Origin: Psammoneis japonica
Taxonomy: Eukaryota
Length of the DNA stretch: 47,848 nucleotides
Assembly: GCA_008632985.1 (NCBI GenBank)
Contig: QPGO01000132.1
Location: forward strand, 186,001-233,848
Direction: 5' to 3'
Shown: in pieces, positions 446-33,029 of the stretch
How the letters are laid out: each line of letters begins with the position of its first letter
How positions within the stretch are numbered: position 1 is the first letter of the stretch
Made by a program: the position numbers and the translations under genes
The notes under the pieces: model-generated
What the model was told of the DNA's origin: nothing
Seen by the model: only the letters and a program-made list of their open reading frames with translations
Database searches by the model: none

Positions 446-1567
446 ATGGCCAACAACATCGATTGCGCCGCTGCAGCCCAGTGCGGACTTGCTGTCAATG
501 ACGATGGCGGAACGCATGAACGTGGGAGGGCATGTGGTGTGGAGAAGAAGATCGAAGTTCAGAGGGTCTGTCAATCGCTACAAGACATGTCAGAGAGTGG
601 CAGGCCAAATCTAACAGAAGTCGCTCGGGTTTGCAGGGTTGACCGCAAATTTGCAGTCAAAGTGGAACGAGAACTTGACTGTTGCGGCCAAGTGCTTCAC
701 CCGCGAAAGATTCACCAGAAACGAATGTGTGGTCCAGGCGTCAACACAATTGACAGTCTAGATGCTTTTGTCCTTCTGACTCCACATCTGGACGAGCCAA
801 GTCACTCGCTGTCTGGCTGTTGGGAGAATCTGTGCAACCTCACAGGAGCAGTGGTTTCGAACGCTGCCATCAGCAGATTCTGGAATTGTGCATTTACAAC
901 AAGCGGGAAACTTTGCAAGCCAAATCTTGTTCCCTGTGATAAATTCAAACCCGACAACATCCTACGAGCATGCGAGTTCATGATGGTTGTCGCTGAGGTT
1001 GATCCACGGAGGGTCAAATGCGGAGATGAGAAGCTGCTGAAAGGTTCAGAAGTGTGTTGCTGAAGGACAAGGCGAAATGTGCTAATGGGGGAAGTCCCAC
1101 CATCCTTCACATCCTCTGATTTTCGCAACACATGCCCCATCATCGGCTTTTGCGGCATCGACACAAGGACCCACCCTGTGCGTTGCCAGATCCATGACGA
1201 GCCGAATGATGCGGAACAGTTTGCAATGGAGATTGAGCATGCAGTGCATCGGGGCTTTCTCAGAGGTGGTGACATCCTTGTTCTGGACAATGCAGCCTGC
1301 CACGTGCGTGGTGAAAATGCGGTTCTTGAAGAATGGCTGTGGACGGAGCATGGCACATTTGTTTTGTTTCTTCCAACGAGGACCCCTGAATGGAACCCTG
1401 CAGAACTTGTGTGGCGTCAACTTGTGACACAGCTCAAGCACCATCCGATCTGCAGGCTCCGCTCGCACACCGAGCATTCCACCGCCTGTGCTGCCCATGA
1501 CGTGTCATCCCAAATTGCGCATGACCAAGTCTTCTGCATGTGCAGAGCATGTGGACATGTGTCTTAA
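446..1567 (+). pseudogene. IS630/Tc1-type DDE transposase, inactivated
   Basis: ORFs 446..1063 and 1079..1567 are in one frame, split by TGA at 1061..1063 (probably from CGA). Motifs GDEK...LDNAACH...LFLPTRTPEWNPAELVW, with 38 residues between the second D and the E. No Tyr in either ORF. Confidence 0.85.
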
Positions 1568-2723
1568 GCTTGTTCTACAATAGAATGCTCCACTGTAGAA
1601 TGCCCTGCAACAGATTGAGGTGCAATTGAAACTTCCAGGCCCCAGGATTCAGCCCCCGAACACCCGGGTTTCAAGCCCACTCCAATGACGACAACAAAAT
1701 GCCAGCGCAACTCCAGCTGTTGGACATGTTGTTTGAAGGGCAAACAGTCATTGACATCCTGACTAAAACCTCTGAGCAATGATCAATGGTCATGGCGAGT
1801 CAGAATTACAGCTGTGTTCCGCCTCAAGCTTCCGCGTGCAACAGGGGGGGTCAAAATTGCCCATTTGTCACAGCACGTGGAATCTACGTAGATTCTGGTG
1901 TTGACCTTGCTGCAGGCACAGTCAGCAAATGACCCGACAATCACAGCACGCAGGGCCTACGTAGGTCATGGCATTGAACTTACCGTTAAGTCTTGTCAGT
2001 GCATAACCTGCGTGATCACGACTGAAACTTGTGGTGGCGATTCGATTCTTCCCGGGACTGACTGGCGACGAACTGACTGTCACAGTAGAATTTGTACCAG
2101 GTGCTGCGGAAGCTGTGATTAGCAAGTGGGCTGTGATCCAAGAAGGAATCTGGAGCCATGAAGGGGGTGGGGTTTGGAGGCGGAACACACAATTAATTCG
2201 GACTCACCTGTTGGATCTTTCCGTTCAATGGCTGACGGCTGGTGGAAAACCCGGGACTTGCTGTGCTGGGAAACACGTGCGTTTTCCCGCAAAAAATGTC
2301 TCTAAAAATTGATGCTGCTTTGCCGTTGCGAGATTGGATCCATTCGATTCAAATTGTTGATCCGAAAAATACGGCAGTTAGACTTTCACCCCGGCGAGAG
2401 CCACAAAAAGCGCAAGATGTGAGCATTGTCGGTTTCCTGTCCTTTGGGACAATGTCTTGCGAGAACAGAGCAGGTGTGTGTTGTTCATGGTGCCGGGTGT
2501 TTGAACATGAAACTGGCTTTTCGCGGAGCACTGTTGCACGAGAAAGCACAAGGGACGACATGATTTTTAGTGACAGATCTACAACCAATGGAGTTGGGTC
2601 TAGATTGAGACACTGAACAGTGCAATGGTGACAAGATGCAAACACAGTCACCAGCACAGAGAGTCTTGATTGGTTTCAAATGCATCAAGTGGGTTCACGC
2701 AGGAGTTCTGCAGAAATTCGTCT

Positions 2724-4440
2724 TCAAACATCCATGCCTTCGCGTCCAACAGAAGCATTGTTCAAAGCAACATCCTCGCAGACTTGCAAACTTTCAGACT
2801 CGTTGGACAATGAGAAGGATGGTGCAGTCAATGCAGGACGATTCTTTGGAGAACCAGGGAAGGAACATGGCCCCACGCCATTTTGAAAGGAATTCTCCTC
2901 GCCATCAGGATGGCAGTTCTCCTTCTCCTGCGTGCCATTTTCATCAGAATGCACGGGCTCTTCCTCATGTCCTCCATCACACCCTCCATCACATCCATGG
3001 GAGCTGCGACGATCATGGGAGGAGGAGCTGGGAGGTTGGTTTTGGTTGCAGTGGCGAGAGATGCTGTCAGAGCGAGTGTGCTCCCTGTCACTGGTGCGAG
3101 CACTCTCACCATGGCGAGAGACACTGTCAGAGCGAGTGCACTCCCTGTCACTGGCGCGAGCACTCTCACCGCGGCGAGAGATGCTGTCAGAGTGACTGCA
3201 CTCCCTGTCACTGGCGCGAGTGCTCTCACCACGGCGTGAGATGCTGCGACGGCGGTGAGAGCGAGAGTGACTGCGAGAGTGACTGTGACAGTGGCAAGAG
3301 CAAGAACGATTGTGGCAGCGATGGGAATCACTGCAGTCACTCTCACCGTCGCTGGAGCTTGGACTGCGGCAAGAGTGGCTGCGGCCTCTGCTCCCGTGTC
3401 CTCTCGAATGACCACGACGACTGCTGCTGTGGCATCGATTGCGGGAACAACCACGACACCTTGTTTGTTCTTGGTGACAGGAATCATCAGACTGCCTCTG
3501 ACCATGTGGCATTGGACACCCGGAGCCAAGCTTTTTGAGGAAGAAGAGAAAAGGCCAGCGAGTGGAGTCAAAGAAATCAAAAAGAAATGAAAGACATGAA
3601 AGATGCATGAGTGCAGCAAAGAAATGACATGATGCTCACAACGAACTGCCCATTGGAAGCATGCAGTGATTGCATGCATTCCTTCTTTGCATCCAAAGCA
3701 TTCTTCTTCTCCTGCTTTTTTGAATCAACTTTGATTTGCTCTTTCACCCTGAATTCTTCGACATGTGACAGGCTCGCTTGTTTCTTCTTTTCACACACGT
3801 CGTCCTGCGAGGCATTGTTGCTGGAGCTCTTGTTCTTCCTGTTGGATTCTTTGGCTGCTACAAGCTGCTGTTTCAATGACTCGATTTGGTTGTTCTTTCT
3901 CTTCAAATCCTTTTCCATGCTCTCCAGCTCCTTCTTGTCTCATCGCGACTGCTCAACCGCGGCATTCTTTGCGCTCTGAATTTCGCAGAACTTGTTTTGA
4001 AGCGTTGCCTTTGACTGGGCCATCTTGACAAGACTGCCATGCATGGACTTCATGTTGTCACACATGGAATCAACAGATGTGGCTGCTGCTGCCTCCAAGT
4101 GTCCATGGCTGTTGTGCTTTTCCACCAAAGTCTTCTCCAATTTTTCAATGCGCTCGTTTGCCAGCACGACTGCATTTGTGCAGGGGGCAACCTTCTTTCC
4201 CCTTGGCTTTGTGACAGCACCCGGCAAGTCCTTCTTGTAAAGCTTGTTCTGTTTTGGAGGCAGCAGTGGCTTCTGAGGTAGCGCAGGAATGTGATTGGGT
4301 GCAGGGATTGACAGTGGTGTCGGCTCGGTTTCGGTGCGCGTCGGAACTTCGGTCCTTTCTCTTGGTGGGTCCCGCTCTGGAGACACTGTTGATGAATCTT
4401 GTGACACAATGTCATCATGGCGACTTGGAGCCATTGCCCA
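2724..4440 (-). pseudogene. Second, decayed ORF inside the Tc1-like element: Pro-rich N-terminus, Lys/Glu coiled-coil, Arg/Ser-rich C-terminus
   Basis: Consecutive minus-strand ORF pieces (3940..4590, 3577..3918, 2724..3608) with coherent low-complexity protein character, broken by stops and frameshifts. Confidence 0.5.
3051..3246. repeat. 60-bp tandem repeat, ~3.3 copies
   Basis: Unit similar to RYGGCGAGAGAYRCTGTCAGAGYGASTGYRCTCCCTGTCACTGGYGCGAGYRCTCTCACC at 3051, 3111, 3171 and partially 3231. Confidence 0.9.
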
Positions 4441-5056
4441 AGGGGTGTGGGAGTGCGACAAGCCGCCGCCGGCTCTCATTTGACTGAGTTTGTTTGTCAT
4501 GGCGTCGTTTTTGTGCTTTTTTTGTGCGTTGCGGTGAGCGGAGCGACTGCAGAAAAAAATCGACGTTCGCGCGGGGGCACCTGCGCGCAAGGCACAACAG
4601 TTGCGATTCTTTTTTTTTCAATCTGGATCTTTGCGCATCAATTGTGCATGCGCGCGTTTGATGCATGATGACGTCCGGCCGGCCGGCACCTGTGGCCATC
4701 CCACGACCAATCAACGCTGCCAGCAGCTGGCTGCCACTGGCTGGCTGCGGCAGAGAGCAACACCCGTCCAACTTGACAGTTGCAACGGGCTTCATTAAAC
4801 CACCTTGGCAAGCTTGTGTGTGGTTGCACCAATCAAGGAGCAACATTGACAACAATGGGAAGCAAAAGAGTGCCCCGCCGCAGTGATCATGTGCGTCTCT
4901 GGTGGCCCACCAGTGAGGTGTGGTGAAAATGATTTCCAATTTCCCATGCAGACCACAAAAGCAATTTCATCAGCAGCAGTTCCTGCCCTGCACCTTGCCA
5001 TGGCTTGCAAAGTGTCGAAACAATGACAACATGCTGTGGAGCTTTGCCAGCGCTTC

Positions 5057-5917
5057 TTGTGGAGGAGTGCAAAAGGAGTCACGGCACCCATTCCTCGTGA
5101 ACCCTCCATCAACAGAAATGACTTGTCCAGCGATGCAGCCTGAAATGGGCAAACACAAGAATGCCGCCAATCCTGCCACCTCTCTTGGCTTGCCCACTTG
5201 TCCCAGGGGCATCCTTTCAATGACAGGTCCAAGACAATGAGAGTGAGTCAAGCAGCAATGCAGTCGACAAAGCAGCGGAAAAGTTGGTCATGATGTGGCA
5301 TCACAACAAGGGAGATGCAAACGTTTTGGTGCCAGGCTCATTTCACACCGTTTGCAAGACTCAACTCTACGAACTTGCAGCACCAATTCTGTGTTGGTGT
5401 GCCTTGGCACAACACAATTCACATGAATGCCATCAGCAGGGGCCCCCCATTCACACACCCAACTCCCAGTTGTCTCTGATTCATGGCTGCCTTTGCAGAT
5501 GTGCAAGTTGTCCCCGACTTGACACATGTGACCCCTGCAACCAACCCAATGTTGACAACACTGCTGGTTGATCCATTGCTTTATTTTGACAGGTGGTTGT
5601 GACATGTGCCATTGTTGGGTGAAATGTCGTGCTCTGAAAGTTGGTCTTCCAGATCATGAACTCAAGATCTTCTTCCATGTGTTCAACAGACTGCCCACGG
5701 GTGTTGGCACCCACATTGTTGACAAGTGCATCTGGTTGTTGCCTCTTGCCAAGAAACTTCATGATTTCAGAAACCAGCATTGCTTGACCTTGTTTTGTTG
5801 AAACATCCACCACAAGCCCGCCACGCCCACCCCCCTGCCTTCCTCCATTGTGTTGAGCACAGCTGTTCAAGTCATCTTGATTTCATCCCCACAAGTCACA
5901 AGACACAACACTGAAGC
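5057..5917 (-). pseudogene. 5'-truncated, hypermutated copy of the tropinone-reductase-like SDR at 19424..20413
   Basis: Aligns to 19424..20249 and retains the intron. The 3' flank also aligns (~4665..5056 with ~19085..19423). [10 protein letters not shown] has become [11 protein letters not shown], and there are frameshifts. Confidence 0.92.
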
Positions 5918-5959
5918 ACACACCTCTGATGTCCTCCAAACCTTGAAACCACTGGCATG

Positions 5960-7511
5960 TCATGTCCCAAAGGCTCAAGCATGCCTGCTGAGCACCACCT
6001 GCTCACTCCAGACCCCCGTTCGGATGCACAAAAATGGGGGTTTGGTTGTGTCAACGACCCCAAGGCCCTCTTGAGGGATCTGGTTGCTTTGGTCATTCCC
6101 AAGTGCCATCTCCTGCTCATCAAGTTGCACAAGAGTGAGAGTGCTTCTTGGGAAAAAATGTGCACATGCTCATGGTGGATTCACTTGGCGGGCAGTCAAA
6201 CAATCCAGACCTGGTGGAAGCACTGTTGCCATTGGCTTGGTGTGATCCACACCTCCACCATGTTGGCAATGATGTTAGAAGAGTGTTCCTTCCAGTGGAA
6301 GCAAACCTCACCATGGAAAACAATGAGATTGATGTCACAGGGGGAGACATTGGCTGGACCGACAAAGACACAATTTGGTCAACCTGAACAAGTCAACATC
6401 TGCATGAGAGAAATCAACAAGTGTGTTGGATCAAAGCACATTGGGTGCAGCATTGACAGTTTCACTGGATGCTCTAGAGCCATTGTCTTTGTTCTTGACA
6501 AGAGCCAGTCTGATGATTTGGTGAGTCAAAACAACTGGGGAAAGGCTGTGGCCATTCATTCTGGGGATCATCTATTTTTTGCATGATCAAAAGGGTGTTT
6601 TTGATGAATGAGCACCCTGTTTTCAAGAACTTGTGAGGCACTTTGATGACAACTCTGGCACTGCAACAATGCATGCCAGCAGAAGTTGGGCACCACAATG
6701 ACTCTTGCACCAGTGATTCAGATTAGCAGGCTCAATGATGTGGGTGCACACACATGGTTTTCAATGAATGTGGTGGGTGACAACTTCTTGTTTTAATTGC
6801 AACAAATTGCTGTTTTTGATTGTGACAAATGGTTGAAATTGGCACCAACACAAGGTCACTTGTTGTGCAGTTGAGCAGGGAACAGTTCATTGCAAAGCAC
6901 CAACCCATGTTGAACTCACAGTTTGGCTCAATTCCATGATGTGCACATTGTTGCTGAGTGACTCAGGCAAAGACAACATTGATGACTGCACAAAGAACAT
7001 GGAGTGGTTTCATGCTCAATTGCAAGCAACATCAAAACATCACTTCTCTGGTCTTGGCTCACATCTCAAAGGGAGACTTCCACTGGCAAGAGAGAGACAA
7101 TGCTTGCAGCTGGGCTCTCACTTTGCACGGAGCACATTCTGTGACAAATCTGCACACACAAGCACAACAGTGTGCTTGCGCAACCATGTTGCTCAGTGCA
7201 TTGAGCACATTGGAGATGATGAAACAATGCCAGCATCTGCAAACCACTTTCCACCACGTGCAGCCAGGACCAAGAGTGGTGCGCACCTTGTTGAGCACAA
7301 CCTGAGAAATTTGACAACTCTCAAGCTGGAGTGGCAGTGGAGTTGCTGTTGTTTGAAAAACTCACAAGCTGGCATCAAAGTTGAGCAATTCAAAGAACCA
7401 AAAAAGAGCAAATTTTGCCAAAGCTGCCCACACGAGTCCATTGCTGAGCATGCTCTGATGAAAAAAGCTTTCAAAGAGTTGGCTGAGTCAGTTGCCAGGT
7501 GTTGTGTTTGA
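5960..7511 (+). other. Heavily decayed coding remnant, probably TE-derived; family not recognised
   Basis: TpA- and CpG-depleted sequence with protein-like plus-strand fragments (5957..6586, 6936..7511). No diagnostic motif seen. Confidence 0.25.
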
Positions 7512-8430
7512 TCCAGCTAAGAAAGCAGAAATTGTTGGGTTGTTTGGCTGGAGCGAGCATGAAATCCAAGAGCTCAAGAAGAAGCTCAAAGTCCAGGGAA
7601 ACTGAGACACGTTGGTGGACAAAAACAACAAGGCATTTGGGCTGCCTTTTTGGGCTTGTGTGTGGGCTCTCAATCAAGCCAAGGTGCAGCACATGTCAAG
7701 CAATCTTGGGTGTGAATGGCAGCTCAGGTGGTGTGGGAAGGATGATGTGTGGTGGATTTTTTTGCTGCAACATGCAAATGAGTGATGATTGACAAAGGGA
7801 AGTGCCAGTTGGTTCTGCAGCAGCAGCTCTGGTGTTGATGCTCTCTGCTCTCCCTGCTTGTTGCGCACTGCACCATGGGAGTGTGACAAATGTGACCACC
7901 AACATAGAAAACTGACACAAAAAATGCACAAAAAAAAACTGTCACGTGACAGTTTTGAGTTGGCGCGGCACTGCATTGCCGTTGGAACACAGGAGGTTCA
8001 GATGTTGGGTGCTGCTCAACTGGGTGTGACACTCGAACAGATGATGGCCAGGATTTTGCAGATTTTTGAATGTTGTTTGTTGAAACATGAGGGTTGTGTG
8101 AAAGCTCTGCACCAGATTGCATGGAATTCCACATGACCGGTGGGCACTGCACCTGCCACTGCAAGTTGTTTGTTTTTGCAACACAACGTGGTGATGACAA
8201 TGATGCTGCTTTCACATCAATGCAGGAGGCAGACCTGTTGGCACAGACACATGTTGAGATTGTTTTCTGACACTGCACATCAACAGGGTTCCAACAGTTG
8301 GCACTGAAAGTGCACAACCTGCTGTGCCAGCATGGCTGGATCAATGCAGTGACATGAGGAGTGACCATTTGTGGTGAAATTGAATTTCCTTGTTGTCAGA
8401 GACAATTGTCAATGCCCCCCCCCCCCCCCC

Positions 8431-11400
8431 CCCCCCCGCAAGTCTGCACATTGTCCATGGCTGCTTTTGCCCATGACAATTGTGTGACATTTTTCCATCA
8501 CAGAAACAGTGAAACAACCATGAAGATTGCTGAGGCCACAAGGCTTGTTGTTGCTGCCGTTCCAGCTGCCTTTTGAGGTGCATGGATGGATGGGGACTTT
8601 GCACCTGAGGCACTGCAACATGGCGGCTTTCTGGGACTTCACAAGTCCAATGTCTTGTCTGCCCTCCAAGATGCCTCAAATTTGGTTGCCCTTCATGCAG
8701 ACAACCACCGAGGATCCATGCTGCTGTGCTGTTTCTCTGCCAGGTGAAGAACTCCATCACAACTGCCATGAAACACATGAGTCTAAAGGATGTTTCCTCA
8801 AATGATTGGAAACAAATGGTTCCTGAGAATGTCCAGAGAAAAGGATGCAACCAAACTCACAAGAACACAATCAGAGTCATGCAATCTGTGAAAATGCAAT
8901 GGTGGCACGACTTTGGTTTTTGTTGGGCTTCTCTGCATGCATGGGAGTTGCTTGAGTGGCAATTGCCAGGCAACACATGATTCTAAGACACCTTTGTGGG
9001 TGTTGCCATTTGAAGCATGGAGCATTTCTGCTGCATGAGCCCAGAATCTAGATGGTCAACACATGATTGGCACAAAGACATGACACTTTCTAGAGCATTT
9101 CTCTTAGACATGTGGAGCATTTCTGTTGGGTGCAACCTGGAATTGAGAGCAACAATGCACAACGATTTAAAATCAATGCACCAACATGACACTTTGTAGA
9201 TTGTCCCCATTTTAAGCAGGCATGCAGTCTTTCCATTGTGCAACCTGGAATCAAGAGTTGTGGTTGGTTGCTCCAAGCATTCCCTGGTTCTTGCTCAAGC
9301 TTCTTCCATCGCATCTTTTTGTTGGCTGCTTCTTCAATTTGGGCAGGGCTTTGAGGCATGAGAGGCATCAGGTGTGTCAGCATGGCATCATTGGCCATCA
9401 ACAGTGAGGTGCAAATGTTGTCATAAAAAAACACTTCTCGCTGGCAATCCTTTTGACTGAACCTCATCAACAGGAGCAAAACAAATGATTTGCAGGAAAG
9501 GATTGACAGCAGGACAGTTGCAACGACCAAACAAACATTTGCAAGATGCAAGACTTTGGCGCAACATGACACAGAACATCAACATTTTGCGACTCACTCA
9601 CTCCTGGCACTGAAACCTTGGTTTTCTTCCGCGCTGGCACCACACATCATGCACCGGGCTTGCATGCTTTTTTTGTCAACTTTGTTTTTTATTTGGCTGG
9701 GCTTGGGCGAGTTTGGTGCATCATTGCCTGGCAACGGCAACATTGCAGCACACTGTTGTTGTCATCACAAAAACACTTTCTGCTGGTGATCCTTTCCACC
9801 AAACCTCACCAACAGGAGTCAAACAAACAATTTGTCAAAAACGATTGCCAGCAGGAAAGCTGCAACAAGGATGGCATGCAACAGACTCAAGCAGACATTG
9901 TTGCGGCAACAACACAAGAAGGGTTGCGTTCCACTCACAAAAGTTGCTCAATCGGATGGATGTGCAGACTCACGGGGGGTCCTCATGAACACAACCCTTC
10001 TCGTGTGTTGTCACCATGACAACATCTGTTTGAGTCTGTTGCATGCCATCTTCAATGCAGCTTTCCTGCTGGCAACTGTTTTTGACAAATTGTTCACTCT
10101 GCTCTTGTTGGTGAGGTTTGGCAAAAAGGATTGCCAGCAGAAAGCATTTTTCGACAACAACAATTGCATCTCAATGTCGCCATCACCAACCAGCAGCGAC
10201 ACCCCAAACGCCTCCAAGCCCAGCCAAATGAAAAGAAAAATTGACAAAAGGAAGCATGCAATCCTGGTGCACAATGTGCAGTGCTGGTGCAGAAGAAAAC
10301 CAAGAAGGCTCCAGTGCCAGGAGCAAGTCGCAAAATGTCAATGTCCTTTGTCATGTTGCGCCAACATCTCGCATCTTGTGAGCATTCGTTTGGTCATTGT
10401 GGCTGTCTTGCAGTCAATCCTCTCCCACAAATCATTTGTTCTGCTCCCATTGGCGAGGTTTGATCAAAAGGATTGACAGCAGAAGGTTTTTTATGACAAG
10501 AATCATGCACCTCAATGTCGCCGTTGCCAAGCAGCGATGCAACAAACGCCTTCCACAAGGCCACACAAATGGAGGTGGTAAAGCCGATGAAAAGAAATGG
10601 AGGAAGAGGTGCAAGCAAGAGATGTGGAATGTCTTTGGCTGTCCCTTTGTTGACAGAGAAGTTTTGAATGTGAACACAACCACAAACAGTGTCTTTTGTG
10701 GGTTGGTGGCATCAAACAAATGCGCGCAGTGTGAGAGCCACTGGGAACCAAAAAAGAATGCCAAACTTTCTCCTGTGGGATGCTCGCAATGCCTGCCCAT
10801 CAGAGAATGGCAAGTGCAAGGATTGCAAAAATGGTCAGAGCTGGGACAACTGCGCTGTGACTGGAAGCGCTGCTGTTTGTCAGCATGACAGAGCATTTGC
10901 CACAGCTCCAGAATCCAGGTTTTTATTCTGCAACTCTTGACTCCAGGTTTGCGTTTGACACCGCATCCATGGATTCACCAGGTGAAATTGGCAAAAGTCG
11001 GGCATGGCAAAAAGTGCGCAATTGGTCAAAATTGATCATTGAGTGCAAATGGTGGTGTCTTTGGGGTCCCGTTGGTGAGCCGAACACGCACATTTCTCAT
11101 TTGACCATCATGGGTCCGTCTCAATGGGGGGGTGTCAAAATGCCATGCTTTGACGTGTGAGCAACTCCTGTGCAGCAAAATGCCCAACATGCCTGCTGCG
11201 GTGTGTTTTCTCAGATTGGATGTTTCTGATCATTGTCAAATCGAAAAATGCTCTGCAAATCATTGCATCCTTGGAAGCAAACCCTCTTTTTGGACTCCTT
11301 TGCTTCCTGACAGCTAGAGCAACAGTGCAGTGGCACATCCCACATCCCTTGCAGCATTTGTCTGCACATGGGGCTGCAACCGAATTTTTCTAATTTGATG

Positions 11401-11644
11401 TGCCTCAGAGGGCACGTGAGATTCTGGACTTGTGAAGTCCCAGAAAGCCACCGCGCTGCAGTGCCTTGTGTGCAAGGTGAGGATCCATCCACACACTGTG
11501 CAAGCACCAGCCAGAAATGCAGCGACAAGAAGCTTTGCGGCCCATGCAATCTTCATGGTTGGTTTGACATTGTTGTGATGGAAACACATTGCACATTTGT
11601 CATGGGCTAAAGCAGCCATGGTTGGCGCACAGACTTGCGGGGGG
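8431..11644. mobile_element. Non-autonomous foldback-like element with ~260-bp TIRs and long internal inverted arms
   Basis: 8431..~8690 is the reverse complement of ~11385..11644 (CCCCCCGCAAGTCTG...CCATGAAGATTGC...GGCTTTCTGGGACTTCACAAGTCCA). Internal arms at ~9240..9935 and ~9985..10950. Confidence 0.75.
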
Positions 11645-12779
11645 TCCCCATCAAGGATGGATCTATGTGCTGCGGTTTGTTTTTTGGGAGCTCACAATTT
11701 TTGTAAAAATGAAATGGATTCTTTGTGCTGAATGCACACGCTCACCAAAAACAAAATTTGGGCAACAGGCCGAACTTTGTCCGCTTTAAAGACACCACAA
11801 AATGCATGAACAATGGTTGTGAGCATGCACAACTTTTGCCTTGTTGACAGCAGACATGTCCACAGCCAGTCAAATGCCACTCATCAGATTTTCCCAGAAA
11901 GTTGTGGCCAATCTCCCACAAGAAGCCAGGTTTTAGTGACAGTCAGTGGTTTTTTCGACAACCTGGCAACAGGGCCCGATGAGCGGCATTTGAAGCTTTG
12001 AATGTGCAGCTCATGTGCCAGTGTGAAAGCCCTGAGAAGGGCTTGACGAGTGCATGAGTGCTTGGGGGGTCTCCCAGGCAGCAGGTCAAAACAGCATGGT
12101 GAAGTGTGGGAAAGTGAGCTGTTTTAAATTAGACCACAGCATGCAGATCCATCTCCTCAATCAGAAGGTGCACAAAAAATGGCGTGCAAAAGCCATTTGC
12201 CGGGCGGCATGGTCATCACTCACTCCCCAGCATTCGGGAGATTAGAGGTCTGCACACATGTTGCACATGCTTTTACATTGCATGGAAATCTGTGCACTTG
12301 CACATGCAGAACTCGGCATTTTAAATTTTGGGCATGTGCACAATTTATGAGCATCTGAAAATTTTCCATTGTCCCAAATGCTGGGAGTTCTCGCTTCCAT
12401 GCATTGAGCATTGAGCGAGTGTTGAGCCAGTCCATGATGCATGTGATGGATCACCAGTCCAAAAACATCCATTGCATTCTGTCTGTGCCCGCAGCCTGTG
12501 GTGGTGTTGGTGCTGCCAGTGCTGCTGGTGCTGCTGGTGCTGCTGCTGCCAACCATTGTTGCATCTCATTCACAGCCAGAACACCAGACCAATCTCAGTT
12601 GCCTGCTTTTAAAGCCATTGCTCATGATGAACCCCAAAGCTGCTTTGGAGATAGAAGAAGACTGACAAGAGGCCAAGATGCACCTGATGGGTGGGGGAGA
12701 TGTCTCCAATCATGCTGCGGCACCACAATCCAAGGAAGACAAGGACGCCCTGATTGCATCACTGCCAAAGAAAAATGCA

Positions 12780-14567
12780 GAACCAAAGGCAAAAAATGCA
12801 GCATTGGACAAGAAAAGAAGTGTGCAAGAGTTGCTGAGAGTTCACCATGGGACACCCCACATGGAAAAAAAACACAGCAGCAAAACCTTCAGTTGGCAGT
12901 GCAAGCATTCTGCGCAGCGCACAAAAGTGCAAGGAACCAGAATCAAAACGAAGTGTGGCAGAGGAAACATCCAAGAAGATGTCGAAGATCATCATTGACA
13001 AAGAAAGTGACAGCAAAAAGCAACAGCATTTGCCCGCAGAAATCGAAGCAATGCAGAAAAAGGCAATGATCTGTCTGAACAAGTTTGAGGTGAATCTCAA
13101 AGATCCAGAAGGAGATTTGATCAAGAGCAAGGTCACTGTCGAATTGGCAGAGAACAGCACAAATGAGGAGGCCAAATTGCAACATTTCAATGAGGCAAGC
13201 ATTTCCAGACATGTGTCGAATGTCCTGCATGATGTGCTGCAATGCCTGCAGATGTCCTTGACCACCAAAATTGGCCAATGAATCTCTCCTTTTTCCATGC
13301 GACCAGACATTGTTGTCATTCACTGGAAATGTAGAATCATTCTGGTGATTGAAGTCAAGAATCCCGGCAAGAATGGCAAGGCAGTTGTTTGTAACAGCAT
13401 TGCTGCCAGCCAAGCCTGCAACCATGCCATGGGACTGCAACAGATGGGCACAGATCACCCGTTTGTCTGTCTCTCCACCTGTGATTGCACGCAAATTGGA
13501 ACCCTGAAAGCTTCCTTTTTTGACATTTTTGAACGGGCAACTGAGCTTCTTGCGCGTTGACCGATTGCAAAGGCTTTTGACTCAACAATCAGCTCAAACA
13601 AACCAAAAGTCAGCCCCACGAAGCAGGGAAAACTGACAGAAGTTCCTTTTGATTACTCCCGCACCAACGTTTGTGACATGGATGCAGACGAGACCAACAG
13701 GGACGAATCCGTGACATCAGAGAAATGCATCGTCATTTTTCAGAAATCTTTGAGTGCTCAAACATGTTCCAAGCCCTCCATTTTGCAGCTGCTTGTGGCA
13801 TTGTGGCAGTTGAACATTCAACAAACAACAGAAAGGAAAATCTCATGCCCTCAGAAGGTGAACGAGTCACCACACGATCCATTGCTGTTGTTCAGGAAAA
13901 CTCGCTTTGCTGGCAGAAGCTTGAATGCAGAGCAACCTGCATGTTGAAGTGCACATGGCAAACCAATCTGAAGGTGCACTTGCATTGTGTTTTGGGACAA
14001 GGCCACTCTGGAAAAGTTTGCCTTGGTTCTGATTCTGCAGGTTGAATGTTTGCCGTCAAGCTGTGTCTTTTTGATGCAGCAATCTTGGAGTCCTTTCGAG
14101 CCGTTGACAATGAAAAAACGAAAATGACTCAGAAGCAAAGAGTGGCAAGAGTCCGCAACAGCAAAGCTGAAAAGTGGAAGAATTTTTACCCCTCATGCAA
14201 GGAAGCGATCTGTTGGGGAGAACTTTTTGGCGTGCCATGCTTGGCCATGCCTTGCGTTGCTTCAGTCCCCATGAATCGCTGCAAGGCCCTTCTTCCAAAG
14301 GTTGAGAAGGAGCTGAAAAGACTTTCAAACAAAGGCTTTGCTTGTGCCGACCGCGATCTCCACTGGCATCACATCGGACCACAAAAGGACCGTGATGATG
14401 GAGAAGACAAAATCATGTTGGTTGATTTGGAATCAACAAAACCAAGGCAAAAAGACAACAAAGCCCATGCCAATCACGTCTGCCTTCTTGAGTCAGCCAT
14501 CAAGCAGTTGAGAGAACGCATGGAAAAAGAGTGCATCAGCACTCCTCAGGAGCTGATTCATGCTTGA
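12780..14567 (+). pseudogene. Decayed PD-(D/E)xK nuclease plus protein-kinase-like gene (Crinkler/CRN-type REase-kinase architecture)
   Basis: RPDIVVI...ILVIEVKNPG (nuclease motif), then LGQGHSGKV, FAVKL, DRDLHWHHIG and IMLVDLES (kinase-like subdomains). Several stops and frameshifts. Confidence 0.65.
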
Positions 14568-14899
14568 TTTGGAATGGTTTTTGTTTGACCGCTTTGACGC
14601 TGACTCCACTGCTTGTCACATCCTCAAGCATTGAAACCTCTGGCCGCTGTCCCACAATGCTTCTGTCAGCCTTGCGAGCAGTGTTGCCTGACATTGGAGG
14701 AAGCAACCTGGCATTTCAGACCTGCAAAGGTTCCTTTGTCTTGCTCCTCATTTCACTTTTCCATTCAAATGGTGGGACAGATGTTGTCCACATTCTGACA
14801 TTGACCACTGCATTCCTCATTGTCGCGTTGCCCTGCAGCTGTAGTTTGGCACAATTGATTCACTCGTCAGACCAATTTCTGCAGTTTTGGACCTTGTTG

Positions 14900-17800
14900 C
14901 TGAACGGCCAACCAGTGCAGCAATGAATGGTGGCAAAGACACTTTAGACTCACATCATGAACTCTCAATTGTGCCATCAGTGTGCCTGACAGAAGCAATG
15001 ATGATTGCAGCAGAGTCTAAATTGTTTAGATGTGCTAGAGCCTGTGCTTGGAGGTGGTCACAGAGCTCTTGGAATCTTCAATGGTTCAATGAAATGCATG
15101 CCCCATTTCACCTGCAAATGTGTGTTGAGTTCCCGCAGTTTGGACCAAGACTTCTCATTCCGGGAAATGGGGAACTTAACACCCAACATTTGGTGCACTC
15201 CCATGTTAAAAACAAGCCCAAAAGATGACAATTCCCCACATTCAGGCATGGACGTGAAGTCGTTGGCACACGGCAGCACCCCTTGTGCTGCCACTGCCAT
15301 CTTGGCTGAAGTCCAGAGAGTCTGTGGGGGGCACTGTCAGGAGTGACAAGTGTGCCTGCTTTGTTCATTCCTCCAGCAGCGCTCAAAATTCTGTGCAGAA
15401 CCCCAAGCAAATTGATGTGATGTTGGTGTTGGCAATCCTGATCAAAATGAGAGGCACAGGTGCCCCACTGGTGCAGCCATCCAGGAAGGCTGTCAATGCT
15501 GGGCTGTCCTCCATCAACGTTGAAATGATGAGAAAGATGCAATGTCCAGAAGGTTCAAAACAGACAAACATCCTGGTGCCAATTTTGCACCATTGGAAGC
15601 GCCATGGGATTGGCGGCAGAACTAAAAAGTTGACTGTGTTCTGTGTCAGCATGGATGAAAGAATGAGTGCAAGTGGTTGCCGCAGGTGGGTCCATGCCAC
15701 CCTGCACACATCAAATTCCAGGAACTCGACAAGGTGGGGGCTTGGAAACAAATTTTGTTCTCTCAGAGCCAGCCCAGTGCTCTCTTGGCACCATCATCAC
15801 CAATGTGATGACACCTTGCCTCCACAAATGTTGGGTCATTTCCAACTGCTTGCTTGCCAATGTTCAACACATGTGGCTGCAGGCTCTGACAAAGCTGTGC
15901 AACCCAAACTCAAGTGCAACACCATGGCTGCTTCTTGGAGCTGGAGCTCATTTTTGATGCAGACTGGGAGCTCTCTCCTCTGGTTCCTTGTGCTGTCTGT
16001 GTGTTGGATGCCACATGTGGCTGCATGGAGACAACAATGATGCAGTGCCGGCAAATGCAGAAGGAGCTGAATGCAAATGTTCAACAATGTGTGGGGACAC
16101 TGAGGTCTGCGTGGAACAGGCACTGTGACAAAGCTTGTGGATGACTGTCAAACACCAGCCATGTGACCCATGAGGTGCTGACTGGTCATTTGCACAAGCT
16201 GAAGCCAACCAGAGAGAAACAACAAGGCAGTTGAACCTTGTTGCTGTTTTGATTGCAACACAGCTGTTGCAGTTGAAACAATTAATTTGTTTTTGCAACA
16301 AGAGGTCATGTCTCTGTGCCACTGTGGCTGCACCCAACCCTGTCAACTGCAAGACCCCATCTGAGTCCATGCCTGATTCCCTCACTGGAGACTGCCAAAG
16401 TTCATCTGAAACCATTTTCAGTGATGGGGTGCTCATTGCTGGCAATGAGGTCCTGAAGGCGATTGTCTGCTCACCACACACTGTGCCACCACACTGGAGC
16501 TCACCACGCCATGGCATGATTGCTCCTGCACACATGGCTCCGACGTCAATCTGGGCAACCAGGTGACAGTTGTCATGTGGCCAGCCAACCCTTTCATGAG
16601 GACTCAGCCCACAACATGCCAACCAAGGGGATGTCATCCAACTGGTGGGAGAGCACTGCAGCCACTTTTTGATCTGGCATCTTCTTTGCCAGTTTGTCAG
16701 CTTGTTTCTTGGTTTGATTTTTTCTTTGTCTTTCTCTTCACCTGTGTTGCTTCTGTCTTTGTTGTTGGTCAGTTTCTCTTTGTCACCACCAGATGACTTC
16801 CTTTTGGCAGCAGCCTGCTTCTTGGAGTTTTGTCCCTCTTTCTCCAGCTGGCTTGAATGCCCCAGGGATCATCTTCCAAAATCTGTTTCATCTTTTTGTT
16901 TTGACAAGAAGCAGTGGCGCCTGTGTCTGGGTTGTGTGCCACATCCTGATGCACTGCAATCCCATGCAATGTGAGCCAGCATGCAGACTTGACTCCCAGC
17001 AGGTGCGGGCACTCAGCAACAAGGTTGTTCATCACCTGCATCACTGGAGCACAGCTCTTCTTTGGAAAAGCAATGACAAGGATGGAGGTGCTGCTCCATT
17101 TCATGTTGATGTGATGGATCAATGGGATCAGCGCAGCCCCAATTTGCCCTCAGGATCTTGGATTCTTTTTTGCATGACAAGTTGATGGTGATTGATCTTT
17201 TGACAATTTGAGTGGGGCAGTTTGGCAATGAAGCTGCGTTCCATCTTGCTGATGATGTGCTTGCAGAAGAAGTGTTGGCACTGTCACAGTTCATTTGTGA
17301 GTGTTGTCCAGAGCACACCGCATGGCACGAGAGGAATGGCAAAGTGCATGTCTCATCTGCAGTCCCATGATTGTCTTCCTGGCACCCACCCTCCATGGCT
17401 TTTCCAATGCAATCTTGGCTTGAAAGGCATGGCAAGCCTTGACAACAATGCGAAGTGCCTCCGGGTTCTTCTTGGGGTCGTCCCAATTGCAGGTTGGATG
17501 TTTTTCAATTGGCTCTGCAGTGGCTTTCCCCATTGGAGGCCAAGGCAATTGGGCTCACCACCTTGACCCAGAGCTTTCTTGCAGATCTGGCAGTGAAGAG
17601 TCTCTTCATTCACAGTCTTGGTGCTCAACGCAAAGCCAGCCAATGCATCCTGAGTTCACAGACTGGCAGGGCACTGGCTTTCTTTAGATTGTGAGCTTGC
17701 CTCCCTTCACATCCTCAAATCTTCCCATTGGTTCAGTGCCATGTTCTCTTTTGTTGGCATGCTTGCAGTTTCTTCCTGCAACAAGGACTCAGATCTGACA

Positions 17801-18750
17801 GCATGTCATGTGCTTTTGGTTTTGGTTTGGGCATGGGTTCAGGCAGTTGACTCCCAGGAAGATGCTCAGAGTTTCCCGCTCCTGTGCTTTGCCCTCAGGA
17901 ATGTCCTCTGGAGCAAGCCACATGCCAAAGGTTTCTTGGAGCTCTGGATCCCATGTGCCGATGGCGACATGTTTGCTGAGAACTTTGTTGGATGACTTCC
18001 AGGCCTTGTTGGGTTAACTTGGTCACCACACAGAGGGGGTCTTCAGCTTTGGAGGCACTGCAATGAATGCACTGCATTGGATTTCAGAGTGGGGAAGGCA
18101 ACTCAGCCTTTTTCTGTTTCTTTGTCTTTCTCCTCTGCATCTTCCACCTCCTTGTCTTTTCTGCCTCCTCTCCCACTTCTTCTTCATCCTCCAACTGCAA
18201 GCAACAATGCTTGCTTGTGAGCTGCTCTGCAGGAGTGTTTTCTTGCTCTTGTTGAGGTTCTGAGTGCTCACTTCCTTTTCCTTGGAGTGGTGTTTCTTCT
18301 GTCTCTTCCATGACAACTGAGGTGTCGACATGATTTGCGCTGGTCAAGGAGTGTAAAGGGTCATCCACTTCCTCTGACTTTCCCTCTTTTTCTGTTGCAT
18401 CAGACTCTTGAACATTGTTTGCACAGTTGGCTGTTGTGTCTTTGGCAAAACCTTCACCCTGGACTTGCTCTTCTTCACTTTCCAGGTTGTCTTTCTCTGT
18501 GACCTGTGACACCTGTCTCATTTTCTGGCTCCACTTCATCAGCTTTCCCTCTGCTTGTTGTGCAGTGGTCGTGTGGGTTTGGGGAGTGACAAGTGTTTCC
18601 GTGGTGTTGTTGCCTGTTCAACAACTTTGTTCTTGTCGTCCTTGTCGTGTTGCTCCTTGAGATTTTTCCTTTGCCATTTTGTCCTTTTCCTTTTATCTTG
18701 TTGCACCCTTTGTGGGTTTTTCTTGCCGCCGGAGTTGTTGCATTTTTTTC
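14900..18750 (-). other. Long decayed coding remnant (Glu/Lys-rich N-terminal part), probably a retro- or DNA-transposon relic; family not assigned
   Basis: Chain of broken minus-strand ORFs (18539..18937, 18084..18539, 17291..17548) in sequence depleted of TpA and CpG. No firm catalytic motif recognised. Confidence 0.3.
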
Positions 18751-19423
18751 GGCCCATGGTGCAATTTTTAAGGGTGGCGTTAATGCGTGCACGCGAGTCA
18801 TGCACCAGCCACACCCGTGGGCTTGGTGACAAGCACCCGCATCGGCATGAGCAAGGCATTGCGTTTGAAGTGATTTTCGTCCGTGTCATTTCCACGCAAG
18901 GTCGCCTGTGCAACACTGGCTTCATGCAAGAATGCAATCCAAGTACAGACCTGAAGGAACAGCAGCGGCGTCTTCATCATCGTGGTTTTTATGCGGTGCG
19001 TACAATGTTGCGGTTTGCGTTTGCGATTTTTTGATCTTACGAACAGCACTTCTCTGTGCTCTAGACTAAGCCATTTCGTTTGACGTTGACGTCCGTCCGG
19101 CGTCTGTGTGGCCATCCGACGACCAACGTTAGCAACATCGCCCACCTTGATAGTTGCAAGGGGCTTTATTAAACTATCTTACCAAGCTTGTGCATAGTTG
19201 CGCCAATCAAGGAGCAGTATCGACACCAATAGGAAGTAAACGAATGCCGTAGTGATTATGTTCGTCTATTTTATCAATTTGCGTTTCGGAATAAGGTGAA
19301 AATGATTTCCAATTTCCCATGCAGACCGTAAAAGCAATTTCATTAGCAGTAGTTCCTACCCAGCACGTTGCCATGGCTTGCAAAGTATCGAAACAGCGAT
19401 ACCACATGGAGCTTTGCTGGTGC

Positions 19424-20413
19424 TTATGGAGGAGTGTAAAATGAATCATAGTACCCATTCCTCGTGAATCCCCCATCAACGGAAATGACTTGTCCAGTCA
19501 CATAGCCTGCAATGGGCAAACACAAGAATGCCACCAATCCTGACACCTCTCTTGGCTCACCCACTCGTCCCAGGGGCGTCCTTTCAACGACAGATCTAAG
19601 AGAATGGGAGTGGTCGAGCAGCCATGAAGCGTATAAAGCAACGGCAAGGTTAGCCATCAAAACAAGAGACATAAAACATTTTGGCGCCAAGCTTATTTCG
19701 TACCGTTTGTAGGATTCATCCTTGAGCACTTGCTGTGCCAAAGCGGTGTTAATATACCAAGGAGTAACACAGTTCACACGAATTCCATCAGGCCCCCATT
19801 CGCATGCCCAATTCCCAGTTATCTGATTCATGGCTGCCTTTGTAGATGCGTAAGGTGTCCCCGACTTGATACATGTGACCCCTGCGACCGACCCAATATT
19901 GACAACACTACTGGTTGATCCATCGTTGCGTTTCAACAAGCCGTGACATGCCGTTGTTAGGTGAAACATGCTCTGAAAGTTGGTCTTCCAGACGAACTCA
20001 AGATCTTCTTCCGTGTATTCGACGGACGGCTTACGGATGTTGGTACCCACATTGTTGACGAGTATATCTAATCGTTGGTCCTTGCCAAGAAACTTCTTGA
20101 TTTCAGCAACCAGTGTCGCTCGGCCTTGTTTTGTTGAAACATCCGCCACCACGCCTACTACATCCAATCCCTCCTTGGTCCATTGTTGAACACAGCTGTT
20201 CAAGTCATCTTGATTTCGTCCACACGTCAAGACACGACACTGAAGCGTGGATGCCAATTCCGTCACGACGGCATGGCCAATCCCCTTTGTGCCTCCAGTC
20301 ACAACCGCTGTCGATTTCGGTGGCAGTGCCCAACAAGCTATTTCTTCTCCCTTGACGTTGAGAATCATCATCATCGTTGTCAGGATGACGAAAATTAGCT
20401 GCAAAATCGTCAT
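19424..20413 (-). CDS. Tropinone-reductase-like short-chain dehydrogenase/reductase; one 108-nt intron (19596..19703)
   Basis: [36 protein letters not shown] and GQVISVDGG motifs. The in-frame GTACGA...CTTAG intron explains the insertion between YKR and SVVERTP. Hydrophobic N-terminus. Normal TpA content. Confidence 0.92.
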
Positions 20414-20882
20414 CGTCGTCCCTTTCTCTATTGACCCTCCGCACCAATCGGGGTAATGGGGAACGTGGGCCTACTTGAGTCAGAGTTGGTGTGGGTGATA
20501 GTGAGATAAAGATAATCGACTTCAGCTATTCTTCACATCAAAAATCACTGCCATCGCCCATCGCCGCCATTTTCCCCTCTACCGGTACAATTTCCCAATT
20601 GCACCGAGCGCCCAGCGCGCGCCGCGCGCCCACCACTGAGTCAGTGGTCTGTCCATCGACGGTGACTTCGCTGGACGAGGGACATTATCGGAATCATTAC
20701 AAAAGTGTCATAGACATTAATGACCGCCTTCCACTTAACATTGACAATATCACGAATATGTCAATTTTCTCGCTCACGAGAACTGGATAAGACACTTGCT
20801 TTCTCACATCATTGCATCACTGACTTACGATGGTCATCTCTTATTTTTACACTTTCTTTCCAAAGACGTGTGTGTGTGTTGA

Positions 20883-27429: not shown

Positions 27430-28283
27430 CAATCCCTGCAAAATTGCGACCCCGACTGAACCTTGTCCGGCTTCGGCAATGGAACGTCTTCAACTTTTGG
27501 CTCCACATGGTGAATCCCACTCGTGCTCTTTACATGCTCTGGGTCCTCCGCTCCGTAGCCGTCATTGGCTTCGACCCTCTCGTTCTCTCCCAAACAGTGC
27601 TTGACAGAGTGACGGAAGATTTCGAGATCGGGCCAATCTCCACAAGGAGACGGCCGTTGATCCACACAATGTCGCCGGTCAAAATGCACACACAAACTTC
27701 ATGCCGGAGGCCAGCCTTTTTGAACTTGAAAGAACAAAATGCCTTTGGGTTTTTCCCTTGGCTGGTTGCTTGACAATCGGCACAATCGACTGTCACCAAG
27801 CAGTCGAGGCCCTTGTCTCCAACGAGACGATTCGACCACACAATCTGTGAAACCCGCAGAGGAAAAGGTTAGACTGAGCATCATTCACATGACACAATCA
27901 GGCTGAAAACTTGCCACTTCGAACTCCAAACACGAAACTCGGTCAACAAAGAACCAACTCCACTTGCAAAACGTCTGTTCGTCAACTCCGCCGCATTTGC
28001 AAGCAAGGTCTTCTTCGGTTTTGCATGTTTTCACCAAAAGCAATGCCCAGAGTAGATGAACTGGCTTTGCATGTTTCTCATCTTTATCTGGCTCTGATTC
28101 TGGGTTGGGAATGCCAATCCTCAGCCCAATCCAGACGTCGACACAGACAGCGGGCTCAACAGCAAAGTGAGACATCCACCGTCGGTCGAACACCACTTCG
28201 CTCCCAGTCCACGGGTGGCGGTTCATGATTTCACTGCCAAGTTCAATGAATGTGTCGTGGTTGGGACCCAGCTTCTTCTTCAT
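27430..28283 (-). pseudogene. PIF/Harbinger-type transposase, inactivated; intron 27845..27914
   Basis: HLLWALLLVK, VDEQTFCKW, LVTVDCADC, FKFKKAGLRHEVCVCILTGDIVWING, CGDWPDLEIFRH and ERVEANDGY resemble the DDE_Tnp_4 layout. Frameshift after WING; the C-terminus appears truncated. Confidence 0.8.
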
Positions 28284-28644
28284 GGGGGGTCCTGCCGTGG
28301 CATCACCCTGTGGGCATCGACGACATTGTGGGGTGTCGTTTTCTCCGCAAAACTGGGCCCACCAAGATGGATGCAACACCAATGATTCTTGTGCAGTCTC
28401 AAACATGTGTTTTTTGGCAAGCCGTTAAAAGTCATGTGTTGATGCAGTGCGGTTGTGCGACGACACAGGCAAATGCTTTCGAACTGCTTCGCACAGCACC
28501 GTGATGCACTGCGCTCAACAGCTGTGATTTGAGTTGGAGTTCTTGATCCATCAAGGTTGTGTGATAAAATGCAATGTTTTAGCTTGCACACATGTGAAAT
28601 GTAATTTTTGTATCTCTGTGGATGTGCAATTTTTCAGAATCTGG

Positions 28645-28750
28645 AATTTTGACCGGACTTTTCGATTTTGACCGAAAAAAGAAAGTCCGGTCAAAATTCA
28701 AATTTTCGGTCAAAATGAGCCGAAAAAAAAGAGGCATTTTCGGCTCACTT
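28645..28750. repeat. Cluster of short inverted and direct repeats (TTTTGACCG / CGGTCAAAA), probable TE subterminal binding sites
   Basis: TTTTGACCGGACTTT...AAAGTCCGGTCAAAA, TTTTGACCGAAAA...TTTTCGGTCAAAA, and TGAGCCGAAAA...TTTTCGGCTCA. Confidence 0.6.
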
Positions 28751-33022: not shown

Positions 33023-33029
33023 AGGAAGG

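Follow-up and report, generated by a model that had tools for sequence, protein, structure and literature searches.

What has removed almost every TpA dinucleotide from long tracts of a eukaryotic chromosome, and what do these tracts appear to encode once the TpA is gone? The question is raised by a stretch of 47,848 nucleotides (assembly GCA_008632985.1, Psammoneis japonica; contig QPGO01000132.1, positions 186,001 to 233,848), which at its full length we call the window and in which four tracts are nearly free of TpA and enriched in CpA and TpG. A preliminary description of 446-18900 had proposed that the target of the loss equals the tyrosine codon pair TAY, leaving overlapping reading frames poor in tyrosine and rich in cysteine and histidine. 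We consider it likely that a process confined to these regions and acting on DNA turned almost every TpA in the four tracts into TpG or CpA, and that the decay of CpG seen in parts of them is a separate matter.

TpA-poor tracts and the direction of the change

446..18950, TpA-poor tract 1: TA observed/expected (O/E) ratio ~0.075; transposable-element remnants, a decayed SDR copy and dense tyrosine-free ghost open reading frames (ORFs)
27450..36800, TpA-poor tract 2: CpG kept to ~32000, decayed at 32500-36500
39850..41000, TpA-poor tract 3: CpG-poor as well
43400..47100, TpA-poor tract 4: CpG largely kept; a thioredoxin copy, FG-GAP fragments and an ORF of 465 amino acids (aa) with a CUE domain and a transmembrane stretch

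Composition within 446-18900 departs strongly from what its bases predict, with 90 TA observed against 1202 expected, 421 CG against 1105 and 3968 TG+CA against 2307. Bins of 500 bp hold 0-7 TA where 20-40 are expected (0-9 against 20-42 over all four tracts), and 2-kb bins over 2001-18000 have a TA O/E of 0.02-0.10. The footprint looked for, TpA depletion paired with CpA+TpG enrichment, is present, and the account nearly balances: relative to the normal tracts of the window, losses of 567 TA and 623 CG (1190 together) stand against a gain of 1174 TG+CA, about half of which is accounted for by CpG decay (623/1190 lost sites). Both self-complementary pyrimidine-purine steps have turned into CA/TG, and GC content in the tracts (~0.48) is unchanged because the TA and CG losses offset each other. 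Each boundary takes up 100-200 bp and adjoins live genes, which are untouched up to that point.

Two mutation layers with different maps run along the tracts. TA loss occurs without CpG loss at 2001-5000, 27500-32000 and 44000-47000, and together with CpG loss at 5000-18500, 32500-36500 and 40000-41000. At 2001-4000 a TA O/E of 0.10 stands beside a CG O/E of 0.71, and at 44001-46000 the two values are 0.16 and 0.92; the CpG of tract 1 is likewise decayed at ~5000-18500, with a CG O/E of 0.15-0.41 across 4001-18000 and of 0.48 in the 4001-6000 bin. CpG depletion is accompanied by an excess of CG>TG/CA changes, the pattern of 5-methylcytosine-type decay, and the CpG process is separable from the TpA process and, we infer, is ordinary decay of this type affecting part of the tracts.

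The direction of the TpA change can be read from two host gene duplicates, each of which has an intact counterpart within the window.

19427..20470, minus strand: intact SDR (tropinone-reductase-like) gene with normal TA, the unmutated reference
19131-20246: segment of the intact SDR that was duplicated, with an intron at 19596-19703
4756..5917, minus strand: decayed SDR duplicate including intron and 3' flank, catalytic tyrosine lost
47402..47848, plus strand: intact thioredoxin, running off the window; reference for the scrubbed paralogue
43367..43809, plus strand: TA-scrubbed thioredoxin paralogue with one 1-nt frameshift (deletion)

Across 1111 aligned columns of the SDR pair (4756-5917 / 19131-20246; 77.8% identity in a blastn pairing), the 52 TA of the intact copy have become CA at 27 sites, TG at 20 and CG at 2, with 1 still TA and 2 otherwise changed; 31 of 48 CG have become CA or TG, and TG and CA of the intact copy are unchanged at 67/78 and 80/101 sites. 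In the thioredoxin pair (43367-43809 / 47402-47848; 88.8% identity) the 14 TA of the intact copy read CA at 6 sites, TG at 5, TA at 2 and TC at 1. Transitions alone account for 49/52 (SDR) and 11/14 (thioredoxin) of these ancestral sites, the remainder being 3 sites with a transversion and 3 unchanged. Polarity is fixed by comparison with outside proteins: at all 8 columns where homologues carry tyrosine (74 to 118 of 118 homologues) the intact SDR has tyrosine as well, and in the decayed copy the same columns hold Cys, His or Arg. These two duplicates prove that the direction is TA to TG or CA.

The scrubbed thioredoxin is probably a host gene copy that fell victim to the process. Its APYF has become APCF, whereas its WCKPC active site is preserved. 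Set beside the intact copy, it shows 22 synonymous and 17 non-synonymous codon differences, and constraint may have persisted on it for some time after duplication.

Target context and action on DNA

Specificity for TpA is plain from strand-folded context rates taken from the aligned SDR and thioredoxin duplicates, in which A>G occurred at 60/130 adenines in TA against 21/239 in AA, 20/249 in CA and 13/181 in GA (0.07-0.09 each; 54/669 when the non-T 5' neighbours are pooled). About 92% of TpA sites were hit once, one hit being sufficient to destroy the site. The second layer appears in the same counts as C>T at 39/133 in CG, against 0.04-0.06 in other contexts. Polymerase-eta-type WA mutagenesis following CpG deamination was considered and rejected, given that AA is not raised (21/239), that nearly all changes are transitions and that TA is lost where CpG is kept. 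Strand-coordinated clusters of TG or CA outcomes were not found (21 runs against 22.6 expected).

The base 3' to the adenine matters as well, with A>G at 27/41 TAC, 14/33 TAT, 10/30 TAA and 9/26 TAG (TAY against TAR, Fisher p = 0.02; Y and R being pyrimidine and purine). The 165 TA surviving in the four tracts tell the same preference, their density relative to normal tracts being 0.020 for RTAY, 0.117 for RTAR, 0.118 for YTAY and 0.433 for YTAR (chi-square p = 2.5e-20). At RTAR sites the outcome was CA 14 times and TG 3 times, matching what a TAY rule predicts. The A of TAY on either strand is thus the best target and TAR is heavily hit too, so that the proposal of TAY as the target stands as a preference and falls as an identity, TpA in general being attacked. 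Adenines without a 5' T were also changed more often when a pyrimidine followed (41/321 against 13/348, SDR and thioredoxin alignments), which may be off-target activity of the same process.

That the changes were made in DNA follows from the SDR duplicate, which retains the 108-nt intron and 296 bp of 3' flank: 19/21 flank, 6/7 intronic and 24/24 exonic TA sites were hit, and parts kept and hit as heavily as the exons point to mutation at the DNA level and not to RNA editing. The intron of the intact gene (GT..AG) is skipped by one contig of a second sequencing run, X2, and this run, recorded as "DNA?", may therefore be RNA; over most of tract 1 it offered no near-identical cover, and its contigs matching 12563-14934 are ~89% alike.

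Reads bear out the tracts themselves. Contigs from run X1 (word depth ~60) differ from the tracts at 0-2 positions over 0.8-3.5 kb, as at 4925-8404 with 1 difference and 16328-18933 with 2. At a likeness of at least 85%, 1016 run X1 contigs match, concentrated on 1-4669 and 9339-12006, and few other contigs fall on ~4670-8004 and 16009-18900.

Repeated copies carry a further trace of the process. Doublets in which one copy has TG and the other CA are the commonest adjacent double difference in four repeat pairs (24/61, 13/35, 4/6 and 9/25), two further pairs giving 1/2 and 1/1, and doublets of this kind recur between the window and other genomic copies of run X1, at 814/815, 1080/1081, 2980/2981 and 3517/3518. 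Such doublets are what separate hits on a single ancestral site leave behind. Two further features of the repeats bear on timing.

1646..2261: segment skipped by other genomic copies (run X1 joints 1646>2261 and 1790>2211), 17 TA kept
31526-32243: tandem repeat of 2 x 358 bp, units 98% identical, 0 TA in either

The first is probably a later insertion, so far unmutated or less mutated. The second must have been duplicated after TA loss, as units so alike both lack TA.

The high-copy part of tract 1 also contains a palindrome (9401-10518; arms of ~559 bp, 75% identity) in which run X1 contigs join opposite strands, at 9506/10423 and 9769/10516; a foldback-type element, or copies lying head to head, may account for it.

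Tyrosine, stop codons and the contents of the tracts

Because TAY codons specify tyrosine and TAA and TAG are two of the three stops, the tracts lose tyrosine, gain cysteine, histidine and glutamine, and open into long ORFs in six frames. Within 446-18900 there are 80 stop-to-stop ORFs of at least 100 aa, against 12.4 +/- 3.4 (maximum 24) in 200 mononucleotide shuffles, and the stop triplets on both strands number 77 TAA, 58 TAG and 863 TGA. Six-frame translation yields 0.12% Tyr against 2.10% in normal tracts, with Cys at 5.97 against 3.87%, His at 4.94 against 3.50%, Gln at 5.81 against 4.08% and stops at 2.70 against 3.41%. Over the whole window, 173 ORFs reach at least 100 aa, 129 of them at least 90% inside the TA-poor tracts, 32 outside and 12 straddling an edge. 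The in-tract group includes 108 ORFs without any Tyr and has pooled values of 0.12% Tyr and 10.6% Cys+His; the outside group has 1.89% and 6.55%. Dense, overlapping, tyrosine-poor frames had been the central observation of the preliminary description, and these counts bear it out. The extreme case is the following.

31375..32862, plus strand: longest ghost ORF, 496 aa, 0 Tyr, no Pfam family, spanning the 2 x 358-bp tandem repeat

The replacement of tyrosine by Cys or His through TA to TG/CA is seen codon by codon in the decayed SDR, where 10/10 tyrosine codons of the aligned part are altered (TGC/TGT 6, CAC 2, CGT 1, TCG 1), giving 6 Cys, 2 His, 1 Ser and, through two hits in one codon, 1 Arg. 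The change of GYYDSFY (19436-19456, minus strand) to GCRDSFC (5069-5089, minus strand), which the preliminary description had cited, is exact. At the tyrosine of the catalytic YxxxK motif, 118/118 homologues have Tyr and the decayed copy has Cys. Its stop codon became Gln, in keeping, like the RTAR outcomes, with the earlier expectation that purine-preceded TAA/TAG turn into CAA/CAG. The accompanying idea that genes are disabled by missense and not by nonsense holds for the TpA process, and does not hold for the decayed SDR as a whole: this copy has two TGA stops, both CGA>TGA, and 17 indel gaps, of which 11 have a length not divisible by three. The TGA stops are attributable to CpG decay, since TA>TG/CA cannot make a stop codon.

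Transposon remnants have suffered the same fate.

1064..1564, plus strand: remnant of a DDE_3 (Tc1/mariner-type) transposase (PF13358, E 1.7e-12; 0 Tyr)
27533..27868, minus strand: Harbinger/PIF-like transposase remnant with GLRHEV at a tyrosine site

In the DDE_3 remnant YY has turned into RC and HH, and all 6 columns with a tyrosine consensus among 7 homologues read otherwise (Cys 3, His 2, Arg 1). Against its closest metagenome relative, L001, 6/6 tyrosine codons appear as TGY (4) or CAY (2), each a single transition. None of 32 metagenome loci with related DDE_3 transposases is depleted (TA O/E 0.42-0.88), so these loci supply no second case from the environment and the TA-poor state is not a property of the element family. 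For the Harbinger-like remnant the expected GLRYEV has tyrosine in 38/43 homologues and the window reads GLRHEV, as had been stated; the motif lies at 27695-27712 (minus strand) in tract 2, outside the 446-18900 to which it had been assigned. A second tyrosine column there is Cys and a third Thr, and 4 of the 44 members of the alignment match DDE_Tnp_4. A further motif that had been singled out is also in place.

13471..13488, plus strand: LSTCDC motif, inside ORF 13282-13557

The "nuclease-kinase" label given to this ORF is unverified: it has no Pfam match, and a protein atlas offered a weak lead of PD-(D/E)XK/restriction-nuclease type (score 0.90, 147 shared features).

It had further been suggested that reverting TG/CA to TA in silico would raise scores in hidden Markov models (HMMs). 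Blind reversion of all Cys and His to Tyr, scored on HMMs built from homologues, produced no overall rise, the changes being +7.8, -6.3 and -0.9 bits for the decayed SDR fragments and -7.9 bits for the DDE_3 remnant. The same operation costs 22.7-42.3 bits in intact proteins (the intact SDR and four DDE_3 homologues), and as the replacement residue Tyr beat Phe, Trp, Ser, Leu and Ala in 4/4 decayed pieces. The reversion test therefore holds signal and is blunt; position-specific counts with controls are what reveal it.

A Pfam scan of stop-to-stop ORFs covered 138 of at least 110 aa, 142 of 55-109 aa in 1-19200 and 114 more of 55-109 aa from the tracts outside that interval (394 in all). The only families to score above the curated cut-off within the tracts were DDE_3, adh_short_C2 (at 4973-5287, in the SDR copy), thioredoxin, FG-GAP_2 (in 2 ORFs) and CUE; another SDR fragment (5484-5882) and a third FG-GAP piece fell below it. 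No viral genes were recognised among the 394 ORFs, and Pfam scans of the ORFs of the window found no ADAT2/TadA-like deaminase encoded in it.

The 465-aa ORF of tract 4 (45738-47132, minus strand) has a Met start, a CUE domain, a transmembrane stretch, 1 Tyr and a normal Cys+His content (5.2%). It sits in a TA-poor, CpG-keeping tract and is followed on the same strand by the FG-GAP fragments (43870-45967, minus strand). No homologue was found at E <= 0.001, and it may be either a TA-scrubbed live gene or a fresh pseudogene. A single N of the assembly, at 44549, also lies in tract 4.

Outside the tracts the gene content is eukaryotic (the intact SDR, a Dicer-like gene, a methyltransferase, a zf-CW protein and thioredoxin). 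Among the best 120 matches of the SDR, 6/6 named protist homologues are diatoms at 61-64% identity, and the two other named matches, at 45-46%, are fusion proteins from plants; the protein database contained nothing near-identical to it. From these matches the host is probably a diatom-like stramenopile. The Dicer-like gene (22628-26679, minus strand; RNase III E 7.7e-15, weak PAZ and weak dsrm matches) is located in the 8-kb normal stretch that separates two hypermutated islands, and its tie to the process is one of position only. The region of the zf-CW gene at 42001-43000 is CpG-rich (44-54 CG per 500 bp, CG O/E 1.13), opposite to the adjoining tracts.

Explanations, known systems and meaning

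Under the reading that we favour, A:T>G:C transitions destroyed TpA by one hit on either strand, and the A of 5'-TAY-3' was the best substrate; RTAY, with the motif on both strands, is near extinction and YTAR, with it on neither, is the best survivor. The victims are transposon islands and the host gene copies enclosed in them (SDR; probably thioredoxin), and a second process turning CpG into TpG/CpA has, combined with TpA loss, pushed all pyrimidine-purine steps to CA/TG. The agent would most probably be a sequence-specific polynucleotide adenine deaminase working on DNA, ADAT2/TadA-like as proposed for the chlorarachniophyte Bigelowiella natans, and the mark for attack could be chromatin state, small RNA or duplication. 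Such a DNA adenine deaminase would serve as a defence against mobile or foreign DNA.

Several observations weigh against this account, in whole or in part. At YTAY sites the outcome was TG 9 times and CA 8 times, a strand choice that departs from the TAY rule. TA loss in the two duplicates stands at 79% with ~6% of other changes and at more than 90% with ~11%, and a steady 20- to 25-fold excess in rate fits these values as well as bursts do. A:T>G:C at TpA could equally begin with damage to, or modification of, the thymine, as sequence by itself does not distinguish the A from the T. Both intact partners, SDR and thioredoxin, are unmutated, so that either duplication alone is not the trigger or selection purged the lineages that were hit. 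The assembly may have been built from run X1, which is thus not fully independent, and the diatom assignment is drawn from a single gene, the SDR.

Among the alternatives, the one that survives best, though we hold it unlikely, is a passive, context-dependent mutation bias in silent chromatin, in which TA eroded slowly beside methylated CpG with neither a dedicated enzyme nor a defence at work; possible causes are modification of the 5-hydroxymethyl/formyl-uracil or N6-methyladenine type at TpA, or a local repair defect. The growth of TA loss with background divergence in both duplicates speaks for it, as do the 17 TA kept by 1646-2261, which is absent from other copies and would be expected to keep them if time matters, the CpG decay that shows the tracts to be old and probably methylated, and the raised rate at non-TpA adenines before a pyrimidine. 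However, TA loss is near saturation in the tracts that kept most CpG, which argues against its being a side effect of methylated CpG or of the repair of CpG methylation, the boundaries are sharp, and a symmetric three-base preference on both strands is typical of an enzyme. The bursts described in the text of the B. natans preprint, in 11/15 lines at ~6e-7 per site per generation (10.64898/2026.01.13.699255), are also at odds with passive erosion.

Somewhat less probable still is a strict counterpart of fungal repeat-induced point mutation (RIP), where duplicates recognised by homology are mutated, for example premeiotically, and the chemistry alone differs. Both mutated host genes duplicate intact genes 4-14 kb away and much of the tracts is multi-copy, as the matching run X1 contigs attest, yet the partner copies 19131-20246 and 47402-47848 are unmutated, ~4670-8004 and 16009-18900 draw few other contigs, and the main B. 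natans target is single-copy according to the preprint's text (10.64898/2026.01.13.699255). The tandem pair 31526-32243 is uninformative here, having 0 TA left in either unit. The likeness to the RIP of ascomycetes (PMC2621366, PMC7296669) is that repeats and gene duplicates are put out of action for good by a dinucleotide-specific hypermutation made of transitions, at the DNA level, on both strands and in sharply bounded tracts of odd composition. Ascomycete RIP turns CpA/TpG into TpA, with AT-rich DNA and TAA/TAG stops as the result, whereas here the change is the reverse and stops are erased; both copies of a duplicate are normally hit in RIP, whereas here the SDR and thioredoxin partners are intact. 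Neither C:G>T:A at CpA with a rise in AT nor mutation of both copies was found, and the process resembles fungal RIP in reverse yet lacks the features that define it.

We regard a sequencing or base-calling artefact (modified heterochromatin bases read as G or C) or an assembly error as very improbable: the run platform is unrecorded and, as said, X1 may be the assembly's own data, but its contigs reproduce the tracts, each TA has a clean TG-or-CA outcome (CG at 2/52 sites only, with no strand-dependent mixture), the mutated copies bear indels, transversions and CpG decay like real old pseudogenes, and copies of one family differ by TG/CA doublets. Least credible of all is A-to-I hyperediting of RNA by an ADAR- or ADAT-type enzyme, fixed through reverse transcription and re-insertion, for which a 5' U/T preference common to RNA adenosine deaminases can be cited (as also in the preprint's Discussion, 10.64898/2026.01.13.699255) but which is excluded for the SDR copy by its intron and 3' flank, hit like the exons, and is countered by hits on DNA transposon remnants and by about equal numbers on both strands (CA 27 / TG 20).

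The two other known classes of hypermutation resemble the tracts in part. Like APOBEC3 (C>U on cDNA) and ADAR (A>I on double-stranded RNA, with a 5' U preference), deaminases that hypermutate viruses and retroelements in animals and are taken up in the text of the B. natans preprint (10.64898/2026.01.13.699255), the process would be a context-specific deamination directed against selfish nucleic acids. Those enzymes act on RNA or reverse-transcription intermediates, whereas here chromosomal DNA including introns and flanks was changed. ADAR is not known from outside animals. Methylated-CpG decay of repeats is matched by CG>TG/CA in sub-tracts, with 31/48 CG lost in the SDR copy, and differs in that TA was lost without CpG loss in three sub-tracts; hypermutation of repeats of a CpG type exists in basidiomycetes, as the TCG type.

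The closest parallel is the process in B. natans, for which a mutation-accumulation study (Mettrop et al., bioRxiv 10.64898/2026.01.13.699255) reports in its text that 231/302 mutations fell in two integrated viral regions and that A>G or T>C made up 230 of these 231, each of the 230 on a TpA, in 11/15 lines. The text also describes 324 "coding sequences" (CDS) almost without TpA and 124 clusters of windows poor in TpA and rich in CpA+TpG, where domains of DDE endonucleases and reverse transcriptases are over-represented, and it proposes an ADAT2-like deaminase as candidate (10.64898/2026.01.13.699255). Set against that description, the two systems share near-exclusive A>G/T>C change at TpA, giving TpG or CpA by strand, discrete regions beside a normal genome with TpA depletion and CpA+TpG gain as the footprint, remnants of DDE endonucleases (transposases) among the victims, and many affected "CDS" that are unannotated. 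At the level of sequence, the tracts carry every feature of the B. natans process given there.

The differences lie in the host, a rhizarian there and probably a diatom-like stramenopile here; in the extent, TA O/E being 0.02-0.10 and saturated here and 0.45 in the active region of a nucleocytoplasmic large DNA virus (NCLDV) there; in the victims, transposon islands and host gene copies here and integrated viral and other foreign DNA there; and in the mode of observation, de novo events having been seen there and standing sequence read here. In our literature search the TpA signature was described in the B. natans preprint only, and nothing was found on diatoms. Term searches of the preprint's text turned up no mention of diatom, tyrosine, pseudogene, stop codon, CpG, downstream or trinucleotide, and its supplements may hold context data; relative to that text, the effect of the 3' neighbour, the consequence for tyrosine and stop codons and the co-decay of CpG are additions. 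What is new here thus comprises the host (probably a stramenopile), saturation, host gene victims, the 3' neighbour effect, independence from CpG and the tyrosine and stop consequence.

For annotation, tracts in which TGA is left as the sole stop produce long six-frame ORFs that gene predictors will call, and the 324 TpA-free "CDS" described in the B. natans text may be ghost ORFs of the same kind. A Tyr content near 0 together with Cys+His of ~10% or more would flag such ORFs and could serve as a filter, and homology searches for transposons in such genomes face a predictable loss of sensitivity. TA O/E plotted against CA+TG O/E would offer a sequence-only route to further cases.

Met a second time, in saturated form and in the genome of what is probably a stramenopile, the process would be shown to be more than the curiosity of one alga. 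The preference for TAY over TAR, with RTAY extinct and YTAR surviving, narrows the choice of enzyme, and so does TA loss that runs apart from CpG decay; both point towards an adenine deaminase that acts naturally on DNA, which would matter for base editing. A bolder reading, which we hold less likely than not, is a programmed defence by TpA-directed adenine deamination across SAR (stramenopiles, alveolates and Rhizaria), a mirror of fungal RIP that would be saturated in diatom-like algae, would silence transposon islands there together with host gene copies trapped inside, and whose TAY specificity could derive from an ADAT2/TadA-type deaminase of the tRNA anticodon (U33-A34). If this is true, a process spanning SAR (rhizarian and stramenopile, possibly wider) would constitute a natural DNA adenine base editor.

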